Assembly: GCA_965204745.1 (NCBI GenBank)
Contig: OZ242010.1
Coordinates: 1,120,001 to 1,184,000, forward strand
DNA length: 64,000 bases
Direction of reading: 5' to 3'
From: Candidatus Latescibacterota bacterium
GTDB taxonomy: Bacteria > Latescibacterota > UBA2968
The position numbers and the translations under genes were made by a program. The notes below the pieces were generated by a model. That model ran no database searches and had not been told where the DNA came from. It saw nothing but the letters and a program-made list of their open reading frames with translations. Shown piece after piece: positions 1-19,240 of the stretch; position 1 is the first letter of the stretch; every line of letters starts with the position of its first letter.

Positions 1-2
1 AT

Positions 3-707
3 GGGCCGAGTTCGTTGGAGATTCGCAAGGAATACGTCGCGCCCGTGGCCCGCGCCTTTCCCGACTTGGACATGATCCCCTACGTCATTCCCGGCAGGTC
101 GGGCACGAAATTGTTGCCGGAAGACCTCGGCATCTTGTTCTCCGAATACCAAAATGTGAACACCGTGAAAGAGGCCACAGGCGATTTGGACAACATGGCG
201 CGCACCCGCGAATGCTGTGGGGAGGCGTTTTCGATCATGTCCGGGGACGACGACAAGACGTTTGAGATGATGACCCGGGATGCGATCAAGGCCGCGGGCG
301 TGATCAGCGTGGCGTCCAATGTCGCGCCAGGCCCTGTAACGCAGATGGTACACGCCCTCCAGCGCGGCGACCTGGACGAGGCGAATCGGTTGCACGCGGC
401 ATTAAAGCCCTTGTTTGGCATGGTGGGCGTGGTGTCTGAAGAACAGACGCCTTATGGCATCACAGAAGTCAAAGCGCGCAACCCCTTGCCGATGAAGACC
501 TTGATGAATATTTTGGGCATGCCAGCCGGCCCGTGCCGCCAGCCCTTGGGCAAAATGAATCGGGCGGGCTTGGATATCGTGCTGGGCATTGCCCGCGAAG
601 TCCATGCCCAAAACCCGGAGGTGTTCGCGCCCGTGGCTTCGTTTTTCAACGCGGACATCGCGCAACGCCTGAACGACCCGGCGGTGCTGGACGGATTGGC
701 GTATTGA
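3..707 (+). CDS. dapA: 4-hydroxy-tetrahydrodipicolinate synthase (5'-truncated by window edge)
   Basis: Y-x-IPGR-S-G, VKEATG (Schiff-base Lys), SGDD, GVISVASN, NP-x-P-x-K motifs; directly upstream of dapB. Confidence 0.9.
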   Translation, partial: GPSSLEIRKEYVAPVARAFPDLDMIPYVIPGRSGTKLLPEDLGILFSEYQNVNTVKEATGDLDNMARTRECCGEAFSIMSGDDDKTFEMMTRDAIKAAGVISVASNVAPGPVTQMVHALQRGDLDEANRLHAALKPLFGMVGVVSEEQTPYGITEVKARNPLPMKTLMNILGMPAGPCRQPLGKMNRAGLDIVLGIAREVHAQNPEVFAPVASFFNADIAQRLNDPAVLDGLAY

Positions 708-770
708 GCATGAGCGGCTTGCGGGGGATGGGTGGACTGACGACTACTGACAACTGTTTTTGGAGCGCGT

Positions 771-1604
771 ATGATTGGGGTAGGAATTTGCGGTGTTGCC
801 GGGCGGATGGGGCAGCGCATCTCCCATCTGACCTTAGAGGCGGAAAATTTGGATTTGGGCGGCGGAGTCGAGTTTGCAGGCCATCCCGCGATAGGGAAAG
901 ACATCGGCGACGTCATTGGCGTGCCGCATCTCGGCGTGCAAGTGGTGGCTAGCGTGGAAGCGATGGTGCGCGAGGTCGATGTGGTGGTCGCATTTACTGC
1001 GCCGCCCGAGCCCACGGCTGTCGCCGCGGAAATCGCAGGGCGTGCTGGCGTGCCGATGGTGATTGGCACAACTGGGTTGTCTGCGGAACAAGTCGAGGCG
1101 ATGACGGACGCGCTGAAGGATGTGGCCTGCGTGTTTGCCCCCAATTTCAGCGTGGGGGTTACAGTGCTGACGCAGTTGGTGGAAGAGGCCGCGCGCATTT
1201 TGGGCGGTGATTACGACGTGGAAATCGTCGAGGCGCACCACAGGTTTAAGACAGACGCGCCTTCGGGAACGGCTTACGCGCTGGCCGAGGCCGCGGCGCG
1301 TGGCTTGGAGCGCGATTTGCAAGCCGTGGGCATTTATGGGCGCCATGGCGATACGGGCGCGAGAACGCGCGATGAAATTGGGGTCCACGCAGTGCGCGCG
1401 GGCGATATTGTCGGCGAACACACGGTTGTGTTTGGGGGCATTGGCGAGAGCGTGATGCTCGTCCACCGAGCGCAGAGCCGAGACACGTTTGCCTCTGGCG
1501 TGATTCGCGCCATTCCCTTTGCGGTTGACGCGGATCCAGGGATGTACGATATGCGCGATGTGTTGGGGTTGAGGGGAGAGATAAGAGGTAAGATACTCTC
1601 TTAA
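771..1604 (+). CDS. dapB: 4-hydroxy-tetrahydrodipicolinate reductase; last codons and stop lie within the IS110 end
   Basis: GxxGRMG, VIGTTG, APNFSVG, EAHHRFKTDAPSGTA, RAGDIVGEHTV motifs. Confidence 0.95.
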   Translation: MIGVGICGVAGRMGQRISHLTLEAENLDLGGGVEFAGHPAIGKDIGDVIGVPHLGVQVVASVEAMVREVDVVVAFTAPPEPTAVAAEIAGRAGVPMVIGTTGLSAEQVEAMTDALKDVACVFAPNFSVGVTVLTQLVEEAARILGGDYDVEIVEAHHRFKTDAPSGTAYALAEAAARGLERDLQAVGIYGRHGDTGARTRDEIGVHAVRAGDIVGEHTVVFGGIGESVMLVHRAQSRDTFASGVIRAIPFAVDADPGMYDMRDVLGLRGEIRGKILS

Positions 1605-1607
1605 AGG

Positions 1608-2615
1608 TCAAGGGGATTGCGGGGCGATTCGATAGAATTTCTCGCCCTCAAAATCTTGGTCATGCCGCAACATGCCCCAGATTGAATGGAGCAACTTTCG
1701 CATCACCGCAACGATAGCCTGCAAAGGTTTCTTGCCGCGGGCAATGAGTTGGTCATAGAAGGCTTTGACATGGACTTCGTGTCTGATGGCCACCCAGGCA
1801 GGCATATAGAGGGCATGGCGGAGGTACTTATTCCCGGTTTTCGAGATGCGTCTTTGTGGGTTGGCGGTTCCGGATTGTTTGGGTTTGGGATCCAGGCCTG
1901 CATGTGCGACCCACTGGGGCGGTTGCATCTCCTCAGGCAAAAGGGTCAACTCGGCCAAGAGCCGCAAGGCGCTCGTTTGTGCGATGCCAGGCGTCGAGCA
2001 GAGGCGTTGGTAGGCGCGCTTGAGGGTCTCATCGTGCAAAACGAGATCGAGGGCTTGGTCTTCCAAGTATGCAATCCGGCGTTTGAGGTGTCGAATATTC
2101 ACCTGAATATCGCGTGCGATGCGCCGTGTGCTCAGGATGTGGTAGCTTTGCGCGTGGTTGCGGCTCTGTTCACTGATGATCACCTGCTTGAGTTGGTCAA
2201 TGCGTCTGGTGAGGGCTTGCAGTTGAAGCCGTTGCTCACTCGGCGCTTGCCAAGGCACAAACGGCATGCGCTCGGCATAATCCATGATCAACAACGCATC
2301 CTTCGCATCCGTCTTGGCTCGTTGCATGCGGGCTTGACCGTACTTGCTCATCGCTTTGGGATTGACGACCATGACCTTTGTGTGGCGATGCCGATGCAAG
2401 GCCAAGGCCACCCCCAAGCTGTAAAGCCCGGTCGCTTCGAGGCACACAGAGACCATGTGCCCGCCCTTGGTGAGCCACTTCAGCAACCGCTTATGGGCTT
2501 GGGGATCATTGGCAAAGGTCGCTTGCATGACAGCTTGTCCGGGTCTGGACAGGGCAACAGACAACGTGCGGGCACTGACATCAATGCCGGCGAAAGCGGG
2601 TTGAGATTTCGACAT
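1608..2615 (-). CDS. IS110-family DEDD recombinase/transposase (335 aa)
   Basis: GIDVS, CLEATG, KTDAKDA (DEDD RuvC-like tetrad); PGIAQTSA, AGLDP-x-PKQSG (catalytic Ser), GNKYLRHALY, AVMRKLL. Confidence 0.95.
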   Translation of the reverse strand: MSKSQPAFAGIDVSARTLSVALSRPGQAVMQATFANDPQAHKRLLKWLTKGGHMVSVCLEATGLYSLGVALALHRHRHTKVMVVNPKAMSKYGQARMQRAKTDAKDALLIMDYAERMPFVPWQAPSEQRLQLQALTRRIDQLKQVIISEQSRNHAQSYHILSTRRIARDIQVNIRHLKRRIAYLEDQALDLVLHDETLKRAYQRLCSTPGIAQTSALRLLAELTLLPEEMQPPQWVAHAGLDPKPKQSGTANPQRRISKTGNKYLRHALYMPAWVAIRHEVHVKAFYDQLIARGKKPLQAIVAVMRKLLHSIWGMLRHDQDFEGEKFYRIAPQSP

Positions 2616-2679
2616 GGGGGCCTCCTGTGATGAGGGGTTGTAAGGGGTCTGGTGTGCGCTCGAGTTCGATCCCGACCAT

Positions 2680-2865
2680 TGACGCCAAGTCTACCGGTCT
2701 TGTATATGCAGCCTCAAGGGACTTAGATACTCTTCGGCATAGACCCGGCGGTCGGGGGGCCTATCTTACCTACAAGGTCATCGCCTTCAAGAGGGGCCGG
2801 CCTTCCCCGAGCCGGGCATCAAGATGGCTTATCTCGATACGAGGGCGCAACTCCTAATTAACCCT
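2680..2865 (-). ncRNA. Predicted bridge RNA of IS110 copy 1 (ends approximate)
   Basis: Target loop with guides GGCCCCUCU (2790-2798) and AGGUAAG (2765-2771); donor loop with AGAGUAUCU (2725-2733) and AUACAAG (2699-2705); each loop is closed by stems. Confidence 0.8.
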
Positions 2866-2905
2866 TACTTCCAAGATACAAGAGGTAAGATACTCTCTTA
2901 AAAGG

Positions 2906-3913
2906 TCAAGGGGTTTTCGGGGTGATTCGATAGAATTTTTCGCCCTCAAAATCTTGGTCATGGCGCAACATGCCCCAGATCGAATGGAGCAACTTTCGCA
3001 TCACCGCAACGATAGCCTGCAAAGGTTTCTTGCCGCGGGCGATGAGTTGGTCATAGAAGGCTTTGACATGGCCTTCGTGTCTGATGGCCACCCAGGCAGG
3101 CATATAGAGGGCATGGCGGAGGTACTTATTCCCGGTTTTCGAGATGCGTCTTTGTGGATTGGCGGTTCCGGATTGTTTGGGTTTGGGATCCAGGCCTGCA
3201 TGTGCGACCCACTGGGGCGGTTGCATCTCCTCTGGCAAAAGGGTCAACTCGGCCAAGAGCCGCAAGGCACTCGTTTGCGCGATGCCAGGCGTCGAGCAGA
3301 GGCGTTGGTAGGCACGCTTGAGGGGCTCATCGTGCAAAACGAGATCGAGGGCTTGGCTTTCCAAGTATGCAATCCGGCGTTTGAAGTGTCGAATATTCAC
3401 CTGAATATCGCGTGCGATGAGACGTGTGCTGCGGATGTGGTAGCTCTGCGCGTGGTTGCGGCTCTGTTCGCGGATGATCTCCTGCTTGAGTTGGTCAATG
3501 CGTCTGGTGAGGGCTTGCAGTTGAAGCCGTTGCTCGCTCGGCGCTTGCCAAGGCACAAAAGGCATGCGCTCGGCATAGTCGAGGATCAACAACGCATCCT
3601 TCGCATCCGTCTTCGCCCGTTGCATGCAGGCTTGGGCGTACTTGCTCATCGCTTTGGGATTGACGACCATGACCTTTGTGTGGCGATGCCGATGCAAGGC
3701 CAAGGCCACCCCCAAACTGTAAAGCCCGGTCGCTTCGAGGCACACAGAGACCATGTGCCCGCCCTTCGTGAGCCACTTCAGCAACCGCTTATGCGCTTGG
3801 GGATCATTGGCAAAGGTCGCTTGCATGACAGCTTGTCCGGGTCTGGACAGGGCAACGGACAACGTGCGGGCACTGACATCAATGCCGGCAAAAGCGGGGT
3901 GAGATTTCGACAT
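2906..3913 (-). CDS. IS110-family DEDD recombinase/transposase (335 aa from MSKSH)
   Basis: Same motifs as copy 1; RBS CAGGAGG before the ATG at 3913. Confidence 0.95.
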   Translation of the reverse strand: MSKSHPAFAGIDVSARTLSVALSRPGQAVMQATFANDPQAHKRLLKWLTKGGHMVSVCLEATGLYSLGVALALHRHRHTKVMVVNPKAMSKYAQACMQRAKTDAKDALLILDYAERMPFVPWQAPSEQRLQLQALTRRIDQLKQEIIREQSRNHAQSYHIRSTRLIARDIQVNIRHFKRRIAYLESQALDLVLHDEPLKRAYQRLCSTPGIAQTSALRLLAELTLLPEEMQPPQWVAHAGLDPKPKQSGTANPQRRISKTGNKYLRHALYMPAWVAIRHEGHVKAFYDQLIARGKKPLQAIVAVMRKLLHSIWGMLRHDQDFEGEKFYRITPKTP

Positions 3914-3979
3914 GGGGGCCTCCTGTGATGAGGGGGTTGTAAGGGATCTGGTGCGCGCTCGGGGTCGCGTCCCGACCAT

Positions 3980-4165
3980 TGACGCCAAGTCTACCGGTCT
4001 TGTATATGCAGCCTCAAGGGGCTTAGATACTCTTCGGCATAGACCCGGCGGTCGGGGGGCCTATCTTACCTACAAGGTCATCGCCTTCAAGAGGGGCCGG
4101 CCTTCCCCGAGCCGGGCATCAAGATGGCTTATCTCGATACGAGGGCGCAACTCCTAATTAACCCT
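3980..4165 (-). ncRNA. Predicted bridge RNA of IS110 copy 2 (ends approximate)
   Basis: Guides at 4090-4098 (LTG), 4065-4071 (RTG), 4025-4033 (LDG), 3999-4005 (RDG); stems CCCGGC-UCGGGG-GGCC/GGCC-CCCCGA-GCCGGG and GUCUA..CCG/CGG..UAGAC. Confidence 0.8.
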
Positions 4166-4190
4166 TACTTCCAAGATACAAGAGGGGTGG

Positions 4191-4267
4191 TCTTCTCACG
4201 TCTTGCCTCTCACCTTTTTGCGCGATGCCCCCGTGCTCGCCCGAAGATACAAGAGGTAAGATGGAAG
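4191..4267. repeat. Inverted pair of degenerate 7-bp (TCTYRCC-type) repeat arrays next to the IS110 insertion site
   Basis: tctcacg tcttgcc tctcacc ... aagatac aagaggt aagatgg aag. Confidence 0.65.
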
Positions 4268-4382
4268 TTTAGCCACGAGCGGGATACAACTGGCGATAGC
4301 CCGTTCAAAGGCGAGCAGTGTGTGTAGCCGTGCAGTGGGCGGGTTCGGATTTTGATGGATACAACAATTGGAGGAGGCAGTT

Positions 4383-6290
4383 ATGAGTGCGGATGTACAG
4401 GCGGCCTTTGATGCCGGGCAAACGCTCGCGGTGGCTGACCGGGTTTTGATCGCGCCCGAGGTGGGGACGTTGCAGGGCCGCGTGGATGATCTGTTGGGGG
4501 CCATTCAAAACAGCGGGGCGTCGGGCGAGTTGATGTGCAAGACCCTGATTCAGTTGGGCATGAATTTTGTGGGGCGCGATGCCGAGATCGTCGGCTATGG
4601 CGCGGATGAGATCGCCGCCGCGCTCGACCGCGTGTTGGGCGCGCTTGACGCGGTGGAGGGCGCGGTGGCAACGCGCGTGGTGGCTGGCTTTTTGGCGGAT
4701 ATGAAATCCGTGAACTTGTCCGATAGCCTTTCCGGGTTGCTGGCCGAACGCATTGAGATGGGTTTGGACGCGGGCAATCCCGGCAGGTCGTTTTTGACCT
4801 TGCTCAAAGCCGAGATGCGCGGCGGCGTGTATTGGCAGATGATCGGGGAGAATGTCTGTAAGTTCGGCAATGATTTTGCGCGCGGGCTGGAGTATTTGCG
4901 GCACTACGGATTTTGTCAGGTCTCGACGAATCCGGTCTTGGCGGCCAAGGCGTTTGACGAAGATCCGTCGCTGGATGACGATCTCAAGGCCGAGATCGCC
5001 AAGCGCGACGCGTGGAAAGCCGAGCCGGAAAAGCATGCCGATGAAATCGTCATGGCGGCCACGTTGATCGCGCTGTGGCCGAATCTGTCCATTTTCCGGC
5101 CCTTGGCCCTGCACACGGAGTTGAAGGACTACATGGTGAGTTTTCAACTCAACCCCAATATCGCGGACCAGGCCGATGCCAGCATTGAAGATGCGCGCAA
5201 CGCCTACGGGATTGCCGATGCGTATTTGAGGGATTACGACGAGTTGCTGGGCGCGGGCGAGATCGCGCTGGATCCCAATATCGTTTTTAAGGTGGGCGGC
5301 GGGCACGAGGCCGCGCGAAAAATTACGACCGTGCTCAACAGCGAGGGTATTGGCACGAATAACACGGTGGTCTATACCGTGGCGCAAGAGGTGCAACTGG
5401 TCATCGACGCGTTTGGGGGCAAGGCGCGGGCCGCGCAGGCGGGCAAGCCCGTGGTGCGGACTTATGAGACGAACATGGGCGGGCGTTTTGTCAGCCATTT
5501 GCGCGAGGTGGAAGCCGAGAAGTTGTTTGGCGCGTTGATAGAAGATCGCGCCGGCGAATGGCTCGCGGAACTCGCTGCGGATTTGGGCGTGGAGATGCCC
5601 GATGGCACACTGGCCGAGCGTGCGGCTCATGTCTGTTCTTACGCCCATTTGAAGTCGCTGGATCACCCGATTGTCTTAAAAGTTGCCGAGGCCGTGGGGC
5701 AGTCTTCAGAGGCGATGGTGCAACTCGAAGCGGATTTGAAGAAGGCGGGGACCCTGGTCGCTCGGCGCGTGCATTGGATTTTTTACGCGCCTGAAAATAG
5801 GCCCAAGTGGGTGGCCTACTTGTCCAAGACCTACGGGTTGACGGAAGATCGCGCACACTGGATTTTGGCGTCGATGGACGTGTTGCCCGCGTCCAAGCGC
5901 GTTCCCGACGATACGCTTCACGCCTTGGGCAAAAACATGTGCCACACGGAATTTCCCAATCACCAACGCGCGGTGCAACTCGTGTCCGAAGCACCGGATT
6001 TTGATCTGGACGAACTCCGGGGATCCATCGGCGATGAATACGATCCCGGCGTGGCGCAACGGCTTTACGAATTGCCCGATTTTCAAAAGGGCTACGACTT
6101 GACACCCGCGCTGAAGGCGTTTCTCGAGCGCGAGGTCAAAATCGATCTGAGCGGCTGGCAGACGCGGGGCATCGAACCCGGCGATTGGCCCAATTTTGGA
6201 TCGGTGCAAAAAACCAGCAACGAGTTCAAGGCGGCGTACGACGCATTTTTGATCCGCTGCGTCAACTTGGCGAAAGAAGTTGCGGGATAG
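4383..6290 (+). CDS. Large transaldolase-family protein with N-terminal extension
   Basis: VSTNP, VSFQLNP, NIVFKV (Schiff-base Lys), GIGTNNTVVYTVAQ resemble transaldolase motifs; RBS GGAGGAGG before the ATG at 4383. Confidence 0.7.
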   Translation: MSADVQAAFDAGQTLAVADRVLIAPEVGTLQGRVDDLLGAIQNSGASGELMCKTLIQLGMNFVGRDAEIVGYGADEIAAALDRVLGALDAVEGAVATRVVAGFLADMKSVNLSDSLSGLLAERIEMGLDAGNPGRSFLTLLKAEMRGGVYWQMIGENVCKFGNDFARGLEYLRHYGFCQVSTNPVLAAKAFDEDPSLDDDLKAEIAKRDAWKAEPEKHADEIVMAATLIALWPNLSIFRPLALHTELKDYMVSFQLNPNIADQADASIEDARNAYGIADAYLRDYDELLGAGEIALDPNIVFKVGGGHEAARKITTVLNSEGIGTNNTVVYTVAQEVQLVIDAFGGKARAAQAGKPVVRTYETNMGGRFVSHLREVEAEKLFGALIEDRAGEWLAELAADLGVEMPDGTLAERAAHVCSYAHLKSLDHPIVLKVAEAVGQSSEAMVQLEADLKKAGTLVARRVHWIFYAPENRPKWVAYLSKTYGLTEDRAHWILASMDVLPASKRVPDDTLHALGKNMCHTEFPNHQRAVQLVSEAPDFDLDELRGSIGDEYDPGVAQRLYELPDFQKGYDLTPALKAFLEREVKIDLSGWQTRGIEPGDWPNFGSVQKTSNEFKAAYDAFLIRCVNLAKEVAG

Positions 6291-6358
6291 CAGGGCGCAG
6301 GCGAAGGTCGCGAGTTGATCGCCGGGTCGGTTGAGCGTTTCTCACGGTGGATAACCGA

Positions 6359-6736
6359 ATGTCCAATCGCGCGACAGATTGGTTGGCGCAAGCGCGGCGC
6401 GACCTGGAACAGGCTACGGATTCCCGGCGGGCGGGTCGGCACGAGTGGGCGTGTTTCGCCGCGCAACAAGCCGCGGAAAACGCGGTTAAAGCATTGCATC
6501 TGTCTTTGGGGCAGGAGGCCTGGGGCCATGTGGTGGCGCGCCTGCTGAGGGATTTGCCCGAAGGCATCGAGGTGGGAGACGATCTGGTGGATAAGGGGCG
6601 GGTGTTGGACGGGTTTTACATTCCAGCGCGATATCCCAATGGGTTTCCAGAGGGCGCGCCTTTTGAACATTTCGGCCAGTTGCAAAGCGATGAGGCGGTG
6701 CGTTATGCCCGAACGGATATTGCACGGGCGGTGTAG
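6359..6736 (+). CDS. HEPN domain protein with a chimeric C-terminus and no cognate MNT nearby
   Basis: W-x-x-QARRDL, ACFAAQQAAE, WGH, YIPARYPN motifs. Confidence 0.85.
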   Translation: MSNRATDWLAQARRDLEQATDSRRAGRHEWACFAAQQAAENAVKALHLSLGQEAWGHVVARLLRDLPEGIEVGDDLVDKGRVLDGFYIPARYPNGFPEGAPFEHFGQLQSDEAVRYARTDIARAV

Positions 6737-6766
6737 GTGCTGACGTTTTGGATCGGCGGATCGAAT
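6706..6766 (+). repeat. 61-bp direct repeat R1, copy 1 (vapC 3' end)
   Basis: Matches 8168-8228 with one mismatch. Confidence 0.9.
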
Positions 6767-6822
6767 GGAACCACTTTCGAGGCTGGGGCAATGGTGCTGT
6801 GCTGGTGGTCACAAAAAATGGT

Positions 6823-7146
6823 ATGATGGGTATTCTTGAAGGCATCCGCGAAAAGATCCGAAACGGTCAGTTTGAGTTCTCTCAGCATGCCACTGACCAA
6901 AGTATTATGCGTCATATTCGCGTCAGAGAACTGCGTGAAGCGATTGAAAATGGTGAACGGATCGCAGACTATCCCAACGACAAATACGGCCCGAGTTGCC
7001 TGATTCTCGGTTTCACGAAATCTAAGAGACCGCTACATATTCATTGTAGTTATCCATCGAGACCTTTAGTCAAAATCATAACCCTGTACGAACCCGATCC
7101 CGCACGATGGATCAATTTCAAAATAAGGAAAAAACAAAATGTCTGA
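6823..7146 (+). CDS. DUF4258-family putative toxin
   Basis: FSQHA, DYPNDKYGPSCLILG, RPLHI, IITLYEPDP-x-x-W. Confidence 0.85.
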   Translation: MMGILEGIREKIRNGQFEFSQHATDQSIMRHIRVRELREAIENGERIADYPNDKYGPSCLILGFTKSKRPLHIHCSYPSRPLVKIITLYEPDPARWINFKIRKKQNV

Positions 7147-7369
7147 CCTGTGGCGTGAAACATTCGTTGAGAAGCGCGTTCTGTATAGCCTTGAAGTACA
7201 AGGGCGGGTCGTTATCATTGAAGATGTCCCTGCGCGAGTCAATGTCGAGACGGGAGAAAAATTCTTTTCTCCAGAAACTACCGAGCGTTTGCAACAAGCG
7301 GTTTGGAACGAGTGTCAACCCGTTCGCACTATCGAGACCCCTGTGTATGAGTACGCCGAATTAGCCTAA
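7139..7369 (+). CDS. YgiT/MqsA-type zinc-finger-like antitoxin (variant lacking the Cys ligands)
   Basis: IIEDVPARV-x-x-x-TGEKFFSPE; overlaps the DUF4258 gene. Confidence 0.75.
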   Translation: MSDLWRETFVEKRVLYSLEVQGRVVIIEDVPARVNVETGEKFFSPETTERLQQAVWNECQPVRTIETPVYEYAELA

Positions 7370-7387
7370 CAGCACAACTCGGATCGC

Positions 7388-7488
7388 GTCAAGGCGACGC
7401 GGGGTTTGACACGCGGTTCGATTTGAATGGCGAGATTGGGTTCGCCGATTTTCTGATCGGCCGTGCCTTTGGCAACGAGGGATCGTAA
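7388..7488 (+). pseudogene. Orphan 3' fragment of an EF-hand/dockerin-like C-terminal domain
   Basis: Translates RQGDAGFDTRFDLNGEIGFADFLIGRAFGNEGS*; no start codon. Confidence 0.6.
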
Positions 7489-7523
7489 CCGCGCCGCTGT
7501 CTAACCCCAAAAAGGAGCGCGAC

Positions 7524-7817
7524 ATGGCACTGACACTCAAACCGCAAACAGAAGCTCGCATCGCCGATTTAGCCAAGCGGTTGGGCTTTGCCGGTCAGAA
7601 TGCGACGGATCAGGTGCTGAAAATGGCACTGGACGACTTGGACGCCAAGACGCCGCCAGCACGCCGCAAGATGACGCCCGAAGAGATGGAGGCGGAAGTG
7701 GCGTATTGGCGGAAAGTGGCGAAACGAAACCGCATGTTGCATCCCTTTGATGACGAGAACCCACCATCCAAAGTCTGGCAGGAGGAATTGTACGACGAGC
7801 GGGGGCTTCCGAGATGA
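7524..7817 (+). CDS. vapB: VapB-type antitoxin (Rv0623-like)
   Basis: MALTLK..E..IADLA N-terminus; LYDERGLPR C-terminus overlapping the PIN gene start. Confidence 0.75.
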   Translation: MALTLKPQTEARIADLAKRLGFAGQNATDQVLKMALDDLDAKTPPARRKMTPEEMEAEVAYWRKVAKRNRMLHPFDDENPPSKVWQEELYDERGLPR

Positions 7818-8198
7818 TAGTCGCCGACACGTCAGCAATCATGGCGGTACTGACCAACGAACAGGAAGGCCCGGGGTTTTTAGATACAATGGTCAACGAC
7901 GGAGGGGTGCTGATCTCTACCGCTAGTGCGGTTGAACTCATGATTGTTGCGATGGGCAGAGGCGATGATGTCTATCAATCTGCCATCCGGTTTTTCGATA
8001 GTCCTTTTGATTCCATTAGACGAGGAGCAGATGTGGGCCGCTGTTGATGCTTACGAGCGATATGGCAAGGGTCGCGGGCATCCCGCTGGGCTCAATTTTG
8101 GCGATACATTTGCCTACTCACTGGCGGTTGTGCGGCGGTTGCCGTTGCTGTTCAAGGGCGATGATTTTGCCCGAACGGATATTGCGCGGGCGGTGTAG
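7814..8198 (+). pseudogene. vapC: VapC PIN-domain toxin, frameshifted near 8005
   Basis: MIVADTSAIMA in one frame; YGKGRGHPAGLNFGDTFAY..LLFKGDDF in another. Confidence 0.85.
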
Positions 8199-15736: not shown

Positions 15737-15802
15737 CCTCTTACGTCTCACTTCTTCCCTCTTGCGTCTTGCCTCTTACCTCTCCCGTCTCACCTCTTAC
15801 CT
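15737..15802. repeat. Degenerate 7-bp tandem repeat array (TCTYRCC)
   Basis: tcttgcg tcttgcc tcttacc tctcccg tctcacc tcttacc. Confidence 0.8.
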
Positions 15803-19006: not shown

Positions 19007-19034
19007 GGCTAACTGATGGGGCCGGGGAGACTAC

Positions 19035-19240
19035 CCGCTTTCAGGCCAATTGATCAACGAAGTGCATCGGGTTTTGGGGGTGTTGGGGTGGCCTTCTCCC
19101 CTCTTGCCTCTTACCTCTTACTTGTGGATGGGGTGTTGGGCGGGGACTGACCGCTTTCAGGCCAATTCATCAACGAAGTGCATCGGGTTTTGGGGATGTT
19201 GGGGTGGCCTTCTCCCGTCTCCCCTCTTGCCTCTTACTTG
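19035..19240. repeat. Two-copy tandem duplication (period 116 bp), each copy ending in a 7-bp repeat array
   Basis: ccgctttcaggccaatt..gtgcatcgggttttgggg..ggccttctccc..tcttgcctcttac at 19035 and 19151. Confidence 0.85.

Follow-up and report, generated by a model that had tools for sequence, protein, structure and literature searches.

Two IS110-family insertion sequence (IS) elements lie in tandem, head-to-tail, on the minus strand of a stretch of 64,000 nucleotides (nt) from a Candidatus Latescibacterota bacterium (GenBank assembly GCA_965204745.1, contig OZ242010.1, positions 1,120,001 to 1,184,000), which we refer to throughout as the window, and their position within an array of 7-bp tandem repeats raises the question as to how such an element selects its site and whether that selection is likely to be made by an RNA. 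The initial annotation of this stretch had proposed a complete and apparently intact bridge-recombination system of the IS621 type, and the predictions that could be examined here, namely those concerning the protein domains, the catalytic residues, the position of the RNA, the strand rule, the CT core and the match between guide and target, all came out as expected of such a system. With a probability of roughly 90% we consider the element to be an IS110-group IS with a bridge RNA that would work in the manner of IS621, reading the joined ends of the element on the one side and the sequence CCCCT-CT-TACCT on the other.

The two elements together occupy positions 1591-4182 of the window and are 96.1% identical (96.14% to two decimals). 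Each is approximately 1.29 kb in length, with 267 non-coding nt 5' of the recombinase gene and only 16 nt 3' of it. Across the genome the left end reads CT-TGTAT... and the right end ...AGAGTAT-CT in 52/52 full-length copies, and a CT core is present at both junctions in all 52 with left and right flanks, the left target (LT) and right target (RT) halves, that differ from one another. The spacer between copies 1 and 2 consists of TACCT and the cores and nothing else, and deleting both copies restores the array CCCCT-CT-TACCT-CT-TACCT-CT-TATCT-CT-CCCCT as had been predicted. The order in which the two copies arrived is not readable from the locus. No convincing terminal or sub-terminal inverted repeat joining the ends was returned by a repeat finder, the best candidate being 10 nt at 90% and one of 14 similar pairs.

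All four guide strings proposed for the left end were located exactly as claimed on the minus strand of both copies (Table 1). Bridge RNAs are decoded by a rule under which, in either loop, the bottom strand is bound by the 5' arm, whose sequence is hence that of the top strand, while the top strand is bound by the 3' arm, its reverse complement, and the core is included in both arms (Durrant et al. 2024, PMC11208160). This strand rule holds for both loops here. The donor loop matches the joined ends of the element, AGAGTAT-CT-TGTAT, at 14/14 positions, again in line with the initial annotation, and the donor guides equal the ends in 47/47 copies in which our search pattern found the loop; the pattern missed five class C copies, and AGAGTATCT and ATACAAG are unchanged in three class C rows of the left-end alignment. 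For the target loop the earlier proposal stood in part. Copy 2 is flanked by acCACCCCT-CT on its left and TACCT on its right, which bears out the 12/14 agreement that had been given, but the leading GG cannot be counted as guide. GG is matched in 0/45 copies with these guides and target recognition is therefore 5+2+5 and not 7+2+5.

Besides the four guides, IS621 possesses so-called handshake guides, which base-pair with the non-cognate DNA once the strands have been exchanged (Hiraizumi et al. 2024, PMC11208158). In the element studied here the AU that follows the right target guide can pair with donor positions 6-7 (AT) as in IS621, and the repeat finder independently returned a stretch, 4062-4071, that takes in the right target guide and this AU and is complementary at 10/10 positions to the right junction TAT-CT-TACCT (2883-2892). 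Position 7 is T in both target and donor, so that cognate pairing is also possible for the handshake. A separate complementarity was seen between the donor-loop 3' arm with its following bases (AUACAAGACCGGU, 3993-4005) and the left junction of copy 2, ACCCCT-CT-TGTAT (4176-4188), at 11/13 positions, the last pair depending on copy 2's own flank, and pairing of this arm may extend beyond the two-base handshake.

The minimum free energy (MFE) fold, at a dG of -81.2 kcal/mol, consists of a 5' hairpin followed by two units of stem, internal loop and hairpin with the guides placed inside the internal loops. The two-loop fold described in the initial annotation was recovered by the MFE fold, by RNAalifold and by a covariance model on orthologues.

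We looked at the insertion sites of the family across the window's own genome, a single closed contig of 5.48 Mb. It contains 52 full-length copies, of which 37 are 99-100% identical to copy 2 (30 of them at 100% over 1295 bp), eight are like copy 1, two are at ~95% and five at ~89%; there are ~20 IS fragments besides the full copies, and seven truncated copies keep the bridge-RNA core. The guides seen in the window are carried by 45/52 copies, those of classes A and B, and mapping these against the predicted target placed 37/45 at CCCCT-CT-T(A/G)CCT. Twenty of the 45 sit at CCCCT-CT-TACCT, which is perfect over 5+5 nt, and 17 at CCCCT-CT-TGCCT, where a single G:U pair falls at RT position 2 with the G of the site facing the U of the guide. 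One copy at CCCCT-CT-TACTT has one G:T pair, four including window copy 1 are found at TACCT-CT-TACCT with a mismatched left half (two mismatches), two at CCCCT-CT-CCCGT with a mismatched right half (three mismatches), and one at CCCCT-CT-TGCCC with one wobble and one mismatch. Half-match off-targets have been described for IS621 (10.64898/2026.08.31.748434) and the half-matched insertions here resemble them. Over all guide classes guide and site pair in full, wobble allowed, in 43/52 copies.

As background we used the genome with all copies deleted in silico, which holds 656 heptamer arrays and 3125 unit junctions. The sequence CCCCT-CT-TRCCT makes up 90/3125 of these junctions (2.9%) and has received 37/45 insertions (binomial P 1.7e-49), and an independent and identically distributed (iid) model gives an expectation of 1.8 genomic occurrences for the 12-mer CCCCTCTTRCCT. 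A chance match of guides and sites is excluded. Occupancy drops as pairing quality drops, from 20/25 perfect sites (80%) to 17/82 G:U-wobble sites (21%; Fisher P 1.2e-7 against perfect sites) and 4/87 TACCT-CT-TACCT sites (about 5%); for CCCCT-CT-CCCGT it is 20%. From natural occupancy data of this kind the tolerance of mismatches and wobble pairs can be put into figures.

Where the guides of a sub-family have changed, its insertion sites have changed to match, the copy at 602780 excepted. The copy at 1297034 has guides TCCCU-CU / AGGUG-AG and lies at TCCCT-CT-CACCT (10/10), and that at 216675 has guides UGCCU / AAGUA and lies at TACCT-CT-TACTT (one G:T, otherwise perfect). Four copies with the class C guides CGCCU / AAGUA are found at CGCCT-CT-TACTT (two, perfect), CGCCT-CT-TACCT (one, with one mismatch) and CACCT-CT-TACTT (one, with one G:T). 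Among 17 left-end variants the variable columns number 9/10 in the target guides, 58/165 elsewhere and 1/9 in the left donor guide. At least six target-guide combinations are present in the genome when truncated copies are counted, and the family represents a concrete case of guide re-programming during expansion. The truncated copies that keep the RNA core are those at 1433083, 2972727, 2860837, 845339, 921837, 1263552 and 2846852; two of them have further guide classes, CCCCC-CT / CAGGA-AG and CCCCT-CT / ACGGG-AG, the latter predicting CCCGT, and the RNAs of truncated copies might act in trans.

The closest homologues come from two closed Latescibacteria metagenome-assembled genomes (MAGs) at 76-84% protein identity. 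In the first the guides TCCYC / AGAAA are accompanied by sites TCCYC-CT-TTTCT, with the RT half TTTCT exact in 5/7 loci and the left half looser, and in the second the guides CGCCU / (U)AGGG, for a target CGCCT-CT-CCC, are accompanied by left halves CRCCT or YGCCT and right halves CCC.. within heptamer arrays. A covariance model of the 135-nt RNA core (model R1) found 59 loci in the window's genome, corresponding to the 52 full and seven truncated copies, and in metagenomic orthologues (46-65% protein identity) it placed the RNA upstream of the open reading frame (ORF) and on the ORF strand in 71/81 loci. Guides could be compared with flanks for 48 distinct flank/loop pairs from these 71 loci (no duplicates, a left-end boundary lying 36-70 nt upstream and a flank of 10 nt or more), in which the left-guide suffix match with the true flank was 4.94 compared with 3.22 +/- 0.14 for permuted flanks. 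In the 16 orthologue loci with a right end within reach the right target guide predicted core and RT at a mean of 6.44/7 (nine exact) compared with 3.81 +/- 0.29 when permuted.

Both window ORFs match PF01548 (DEDD_Tnp_IS110, E 1.2e-24 and 4.6e-23), and PF02371 (Transposase_20) is matched at E 4.8e-20. The best solved relative is ISCro4 (9t56; E 7.6e-40 over residues 7-326) followed by IS621 (8wt6; E 5.8e-36). The catalytic residues of IS621 have been named as D11, E60, D102, D105 and S241 (PMC11208158); the first four align here with D12, the E of LEATG and the two D of KTDAKDA, and RISKTGN aligns with the RMSKAGH of IS621 that holds S241. The 335-aa ORF is intact in 51/52 full-length copies and the RISKTGN motif is likewise present in 51/52. 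All 57 PF01548 matches in the genome belong to this single IS family. To call it a candidate new programmable recombinase is correct but does not set it apart, as 3553 database proteins match the recombinase at E <= 0.001.

The mechanism we propose is as follows. The 267-nt left end would encode a bridge RNA with two loops, a donor-binding loop (AGAGUAU-CU / AUACA-AG) that would read the right end joined to the left end in an excised circle and a target-binding loop (CCCCU-CU / AGGUA-AG) that would read CCCCT-CT-TACCT. The 335-aa DEDD/Ser recombinase would then exchange strands at the shared CT core to give LT-CT-[TGTAT...AGAGTAT]-CT-RT with no duplication beyond the core. Every unit boundary of an array would offer a candidate core between two pentamers, matching the 5+2+5 geometry of the guides, and from among these the element would pick the CCCCT/TACCT boundary and, less often, TGCCT via G:U. 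Transcription of the RNA, a circular intermediate with a promoter at its junction and catalysis are steps that we infer from the sequence. A -35-like TTGACC in the right end would combine with TATCTT (4173-4178) in the left end as TTGACC-18-TATCTT, an arrangement that arises only with the two ends joined and that is a candidate by consensus only, at 9/12 matches. Its spacing would be lost in the tandem pair, where 7 bp are added. A promoter and terminator scan of the linear locus gave a single weak site inside the ORF, which we rejected as the RNA promoter. The IS has probably been active recently because its ORFs are intact and 30 copies are identical.

Table 1 Features of the tandem IS pair and its surroundings, in window coordinates. 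RNA features, guides and promoter elements are predictions
Feature	Position	Strand	Remarks
IS copy 2 (class A) with its two CT cores	2888..4182	-	element proper 2890-4180; cores 4182-4181 and 2889-2888
IS copy 1 (class B), including both CT cores	1591..2882	-	element proper 1593-2880; cores 2882-2881 and 1592-1591
TACCT pentamer	2883..2887	-	serves copy 2 as right and copy 1 as left target half
CCCCT, left target half of copy 2	4183..4187	-	window sequence
Remainder of heptamer array 3' of copy 1, TACCT-CT-TATCT-CT-CCCCT	1572..1590	-	overlaps dapB 3' end
Recombinase gene of copy 2, 335 aa	2906..3913	-	GGAGG upstream of ATG; PF01548 1.2e-24, PF02371 4.8e-20
Recombinase gene of copy 1, 335 aa	1608..2615	-	intact ORF, catalytic motif strings present; same two Pfam domains
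Bridge-RNA core of copy 2, target-binding then donor-binding loop	3981..4115	-	fold, consensus structure, covariance model R1
5' stem-loop of copy 2 RNA	~4116-4145	-	fold
Left target guide of copy 2, GG (unused) + CCCCU + core CU	4090..4098	-	motif GG-CCCCT-CT 4098-4090; matches LT CCCCT in 41/45 class A/B copies
Right target guide of copy 2, AGGUA-AG + handshake AU	4063..4071	-	motif AGGTA-AG 4071-4065; RT TACCT in 24/45 copies, TGCCT (G:U) in 17/45
Left donor guide of copy 2, AGAGUAU-CU	4025..4033	-	motif AGAGTAT-CT 4033-4025; equals right end + core in 52 copies
Right donor guide of copy 2, AUACA-AG + handshake AC	3997..4005	-	motif ATACA-AG 4005-3999; reverse complement of CT-TGTAT, left end
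Bridge-RNA core of copy 1	2681..2815	-	guides 2790-2798, 2763-2771, 2725-2733, 2697-2705; same four motifs at 2798-2790, 2771-2765, 2733-2725, 2705-2699
-35-like TTGACC in right end	2904..2909	-	copy 1: 1606-1611; pairs with TATCTT of left end
CT-TGTAT-CT-T, solitary left-end first 8 nt + core	4244..4253	-	62 nt upstream of copy 2, ahead of a hairpin repeat of the host
Unoccupied wobble target CCCCT-CT-TGCCT	19098..19109	+	second at 19221-19232; window scan
dapB	771-1604		last codons extend into array and IS end
Transaldolase-like gene	4368-6290

A number of observations weigh against a working bridge-RNA system of this kind. True mismatches between guide and site are present in 9/52 copies (four at TACCT-CT-TACCT, two with CCCGT, one with TGCCC, one of class C, and 602780). 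The last of these (602780-604074) is the sole full copy whose guides misfit: its UGCCU / AAGUA predicts TGCCT-CT-TACTT and its site is TCCCT-CT-CACCT with three mismatches, a site which fits the guides of the copy at 1297034, and it is possible that the RNA of another copy acted in trans or that the loop was later converted. The GG preceding the left guide, unpaired throughout as described above, also belongs here. The single-sequence fold is modest with a z of -2.16, or 2.2 standard deviations better than shuffles. Compensatory changes in 27/33 pairs of the orthologue alignment, compared with 14.2 +/- 1.8 in shuffled and 8-12 in slid controls, speak for the structure, but the figure is limited by the alignment having been fitted to model R1, which favours structure; among 17 close relatives 97.8% of cells are paired but 2/38 pairs are compensatory, which is no better than shuffles. 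For the donor-loop handshake AC the one pairing partner in the target is T7. No Rfam match was obtained for positions 1-8000 of the window at E <= 1, which is uninformative since no bridge-RNA family was seen in Rfam. The junction of right end and left end, AGAGTATCTTGTAT, occurs 0 times in the assembly, and neither the circle junction nor an empty-site joint was seen in the contigs of four metagenome runs, in which contigs break at the IS ends; activity is accordingly read from identical copies only. A low-depth joint from 2885 to 4258 (depth 2.7, side 26) is explained by the short repeat AGGTAAG.

The missing junctions bear on whether the elements are relics, such that the match of guide and target records past transposition and the window copies or the whole family no longer move, perhaps because the RNA is not made from chromosomal copies or because the host silences them. 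Few good targets are left with 80% of the perfect sites filled, and the IS621 bridge RNA has been reported as weakly expressed from chromosomal loci with inefficient excision (PMC13626964). Contigs however cannot show rare junctions, and 30 copies without a single difference together with 51/52 intact ORFs carrying the catalytic motifs would be unexpected after long inactivity, and we regard a family that has stopped moving as unlikely. The counts themselves would lose force if copies had spread by duplication of larger segments, IS and flanks together, as the 45 sites would then not be independent. Such spread is very unlikely: the genome is rich in dispersed repeats and five class C copies are alike over about 30 nt of flank, but the 30-nt flanks of class A and B copies differ widely on both sides beyond the 12-bp site, array lengths and unit orders vary between sites, and both orientations occur.

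It is scarcely credible that the protein or the DNA structure of the arrays chooses the sites and that the identity of loop and flank is incidental, for example through array-like sequence picked up by recombination. This explanation could draw on the donor ends, which themselves resemble heptamer units (GTAT-CT-TGTAT-CT), on the frequent position of arrays beside inverted arrays able to form hairpins, and on the structural layer of target recognition reported for ISPpu10 (10.64898/2026.03.19.712850). It does not predict that, within one genome, a change of guides goes with a change of sites between sub-families alike over more than 88% of the element, nor that they do so again in two other genomes and in metagenomic orthologues when compared with permuted controls. 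The preference for Watson-Crick over G:U pairs is a prediction of RNA pairing, and the same strand rule is obeyed by both loops. Site selection by a bridge RNA is our preferred explanation.

The mechanism, the decoding rule, targets of the repetitive extragenic palindromic (REP) type, tolerance of wobble pairs, insertions at half-matched sites and IS110 copies in tandem are already in print, and understanding of the bridge-RNA mechanism is left unchanged by this family, which is a clear but expected example of the mechanism of 2024. With IS621 of Escherichia coli as it is described (PMC11208160, PMC11208158) the element shares both protein domains with D/E/D/D and Ser aligned, a left end that encodes the RNA, the target loop preceding the donor loop, the strand rule and the CT core, as well as G:U tolerance at natural targets, a candidate handshake AU facing donor AT and dispersed intergenic repeats as targets. 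The two are distant in sequence (E 5.8e-36). The left target guide described for IS621 is a stretch of 8-9 nt compared with 5+2 nt here, and the REP stem that IS621 targets is replaced by the boundary of two 7-bp tandem units. Unlike IS621, the element here is represented by 52 copies with several guide classes in one genome and is known from sequence alone.

The transposase of ISCro4 (PDB 9t56), compared by protein only, has the same domain order as the recombinase here. ISPpu10 and ISPpu9 of Pseudomonas putida are likewise IS110 elements described as inserting into multi-copy conserved intergenic repeats, and for ISPpu10 a stem-loop on the target side is reported to add specificity (10.64898/2026.03.19.712850); the targets here differ from theirs in being tandem heptamers. 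The IS1111 group with its seekRNA (Siddiquee et al. 2024, PMC11187229) shares a DEDD transposase and RNA-guided target choice. Members of that group are described as having sub-terminal inverted repeats (PMC11187229), of which the element here has no convincing example, and a further difference is its long non-coding region 5' of the gene (267 nt compared with 16 nt 3'). In titles and abstracts we found no IS110 element aimed at heptamer arrays, present in Latescibacteria or leaving scars, and supplementary lists of IS110 orthologues may already include the family or its predicted RNA. Its 52 insertions and seven truncated copies amount to a natural data set of unusual size on a mechanism for which a single element of E. 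coli has been the main source, and at 335 aa with an RNA core of about 135 nt and a defined donor and target it is a compact orthologue for bench work. The IS is also present in contigs of sponge and marine metagenomes; the 24 runs listed all consist of contigs and include no RNA run.

The arrays that the element targets are built from a 7-bp unit of CT and 5 nt with pentamers of the form YRCST. Shuffled genomes contain 0-2 such arrays compared with 656 in the genome with copies removed, and elsewhere in the genome an array may reach 48 units. Those in the window are intergenic (1572-1592, 4195-4215, 15740-15802, 19096-19123 and 19212-19239). Many of the arrays displayed start with a CCCCT unit after GGTGGCC and are sometimes placed beside an inverted array (by eye), and arrays are embedded in a mosaic of dispersed hairpin repeats. 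The initial annotation had spoken of a 7-bp tandem-repeat family rather than classical REPs; the tandem-repeat target was borne out and the contrast with REPs is only half right, given arrays that are intergenic, often inverted around GGTGGCC and set in a hairpin-repeat mosaic. They are REP-like in context and not in form. The idea that the IS made the arrays was rejected as bridge recombination adds no bases and arrays far outnumber copies.

A more tentative part of our analysis concerns the heptamer TGTATCT, with which the IS left end begins and which, in this genome and two others, is also found on its own, placed exactly on the CT core of target sites of the IS type. Outside full copies there are 166 occurrences of CTTGTATCTT, the core followed by nt 1-8 of the left end, when about six are expected (hand estimate, iid model), and it heads two host repeats. 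The host repeat TCCTCGYAGGCACAGGCGTAGCC is present in 115 copies, 99 of which read ..CCCC-CT-TCCTCG.. (empty) and 15 of which read ..CCCC-CT-TGTAT-CT-TCCTCG..; about 11 of these 15 share one longer flank, so that the 15 represent few independent events with about five flank types. In one TCCTCGYAGGCACAGGCGTAGCC copy the same CT is where the IS right end lies, and upstream flanks of TCCTCGYAGGCACAGGCGTAGCC are also joined to truncated IS left ends. The truncated copy at 1433083 lies at such a flank and its guides, CCCCC-CT / CAGGA-AG, fit the TCCTCGYAGGCACAGGCGTAGCC site bar one base on each side. In the hairpin host repeat the heptamer heads 53-61 of 97 copies, and a related MAG has 85 such heptamer sites heading the same hairpin repeat.

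GTATCT forms direct repeats at the IS ends, being nt 2-7 of the left end and the last four nt of the right end with the core. It is possible, although we consider it doubtful, that loss of a copy can leave a TGTATCT scar through deletion between the two GTATCT sequences, that guide-switched sub-families colonise other junctions once the perfect sites (20/25) are nearly saturated, and that the element in this way may shape host repeats. Such a scar may originate from slippage or from a side reaction of the recombinase, both being compatible with it. The heptamer may instead be an old part of the hairpin repeat that the IS end merely resembles. We rejected the notion that repeats headed by CTTGTATCTT represent the left ends of another IS110 family, since one family accounts for all 57 PF01548 matches, and also that they are non-autonomous elements with both ends, as AGAGTATCT occurs only 13 times outside full copies, 8/13 of these in IS fragments (by eye). 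Were the scar real, IS110 elements would not always be traceless and former occupancy could be read from genomes. The possible scar is relevant to the debate about the way in which IS110 elements depart from a site, where recent preprints argue for copy-out or single-strand excision with the donor site intact.

Adjoining copy 2 on the minus strand, positions 4183-4340 form a mosaic of dispersed host repeats. A module of ~45 nt within it (GCTCGCCTTTGAAC...GTGGC) has about 310 genomic matches and a hairpin module, GGGCGA-loop-TCGCCC, about 160, and in sponge-metagenome contigs the summed depth of this segment is 5-10 times that of the IS. Further along the window two tandem units of ~120 bp are found at 19020-19240 on the plus strand, each ending in GGGGTGGCCTTCT and a short array with an unoccupied CCCCT-CT-TGCCT (19098 and 19221).

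A nine-unit CT-YRCST array at 15740-15802 on the plus strand stops about 17 nt short of the following gene's start codon. Array units such as CACCTCT appear similar to the anti-Shine-Dalgarno end of 16S rRNA, and arrays in 5' leaders might therefore affect translation. Short tandem repeats of other kinds are present in the genome, for example beside arrays, and in the window at about 740-760. They comprise two heptamers, CTGACCA/CTGACTA and ACTGACA, and the 9-mer CCTTTTGTG. Intergenic direct repeats of TAACTGA have been described in Beggiatoaceae and Cyanobacteria (PMC4679880), and the CTGACCA/CTGACTA and ACTGACA heptamers resemble the repeats of that account.

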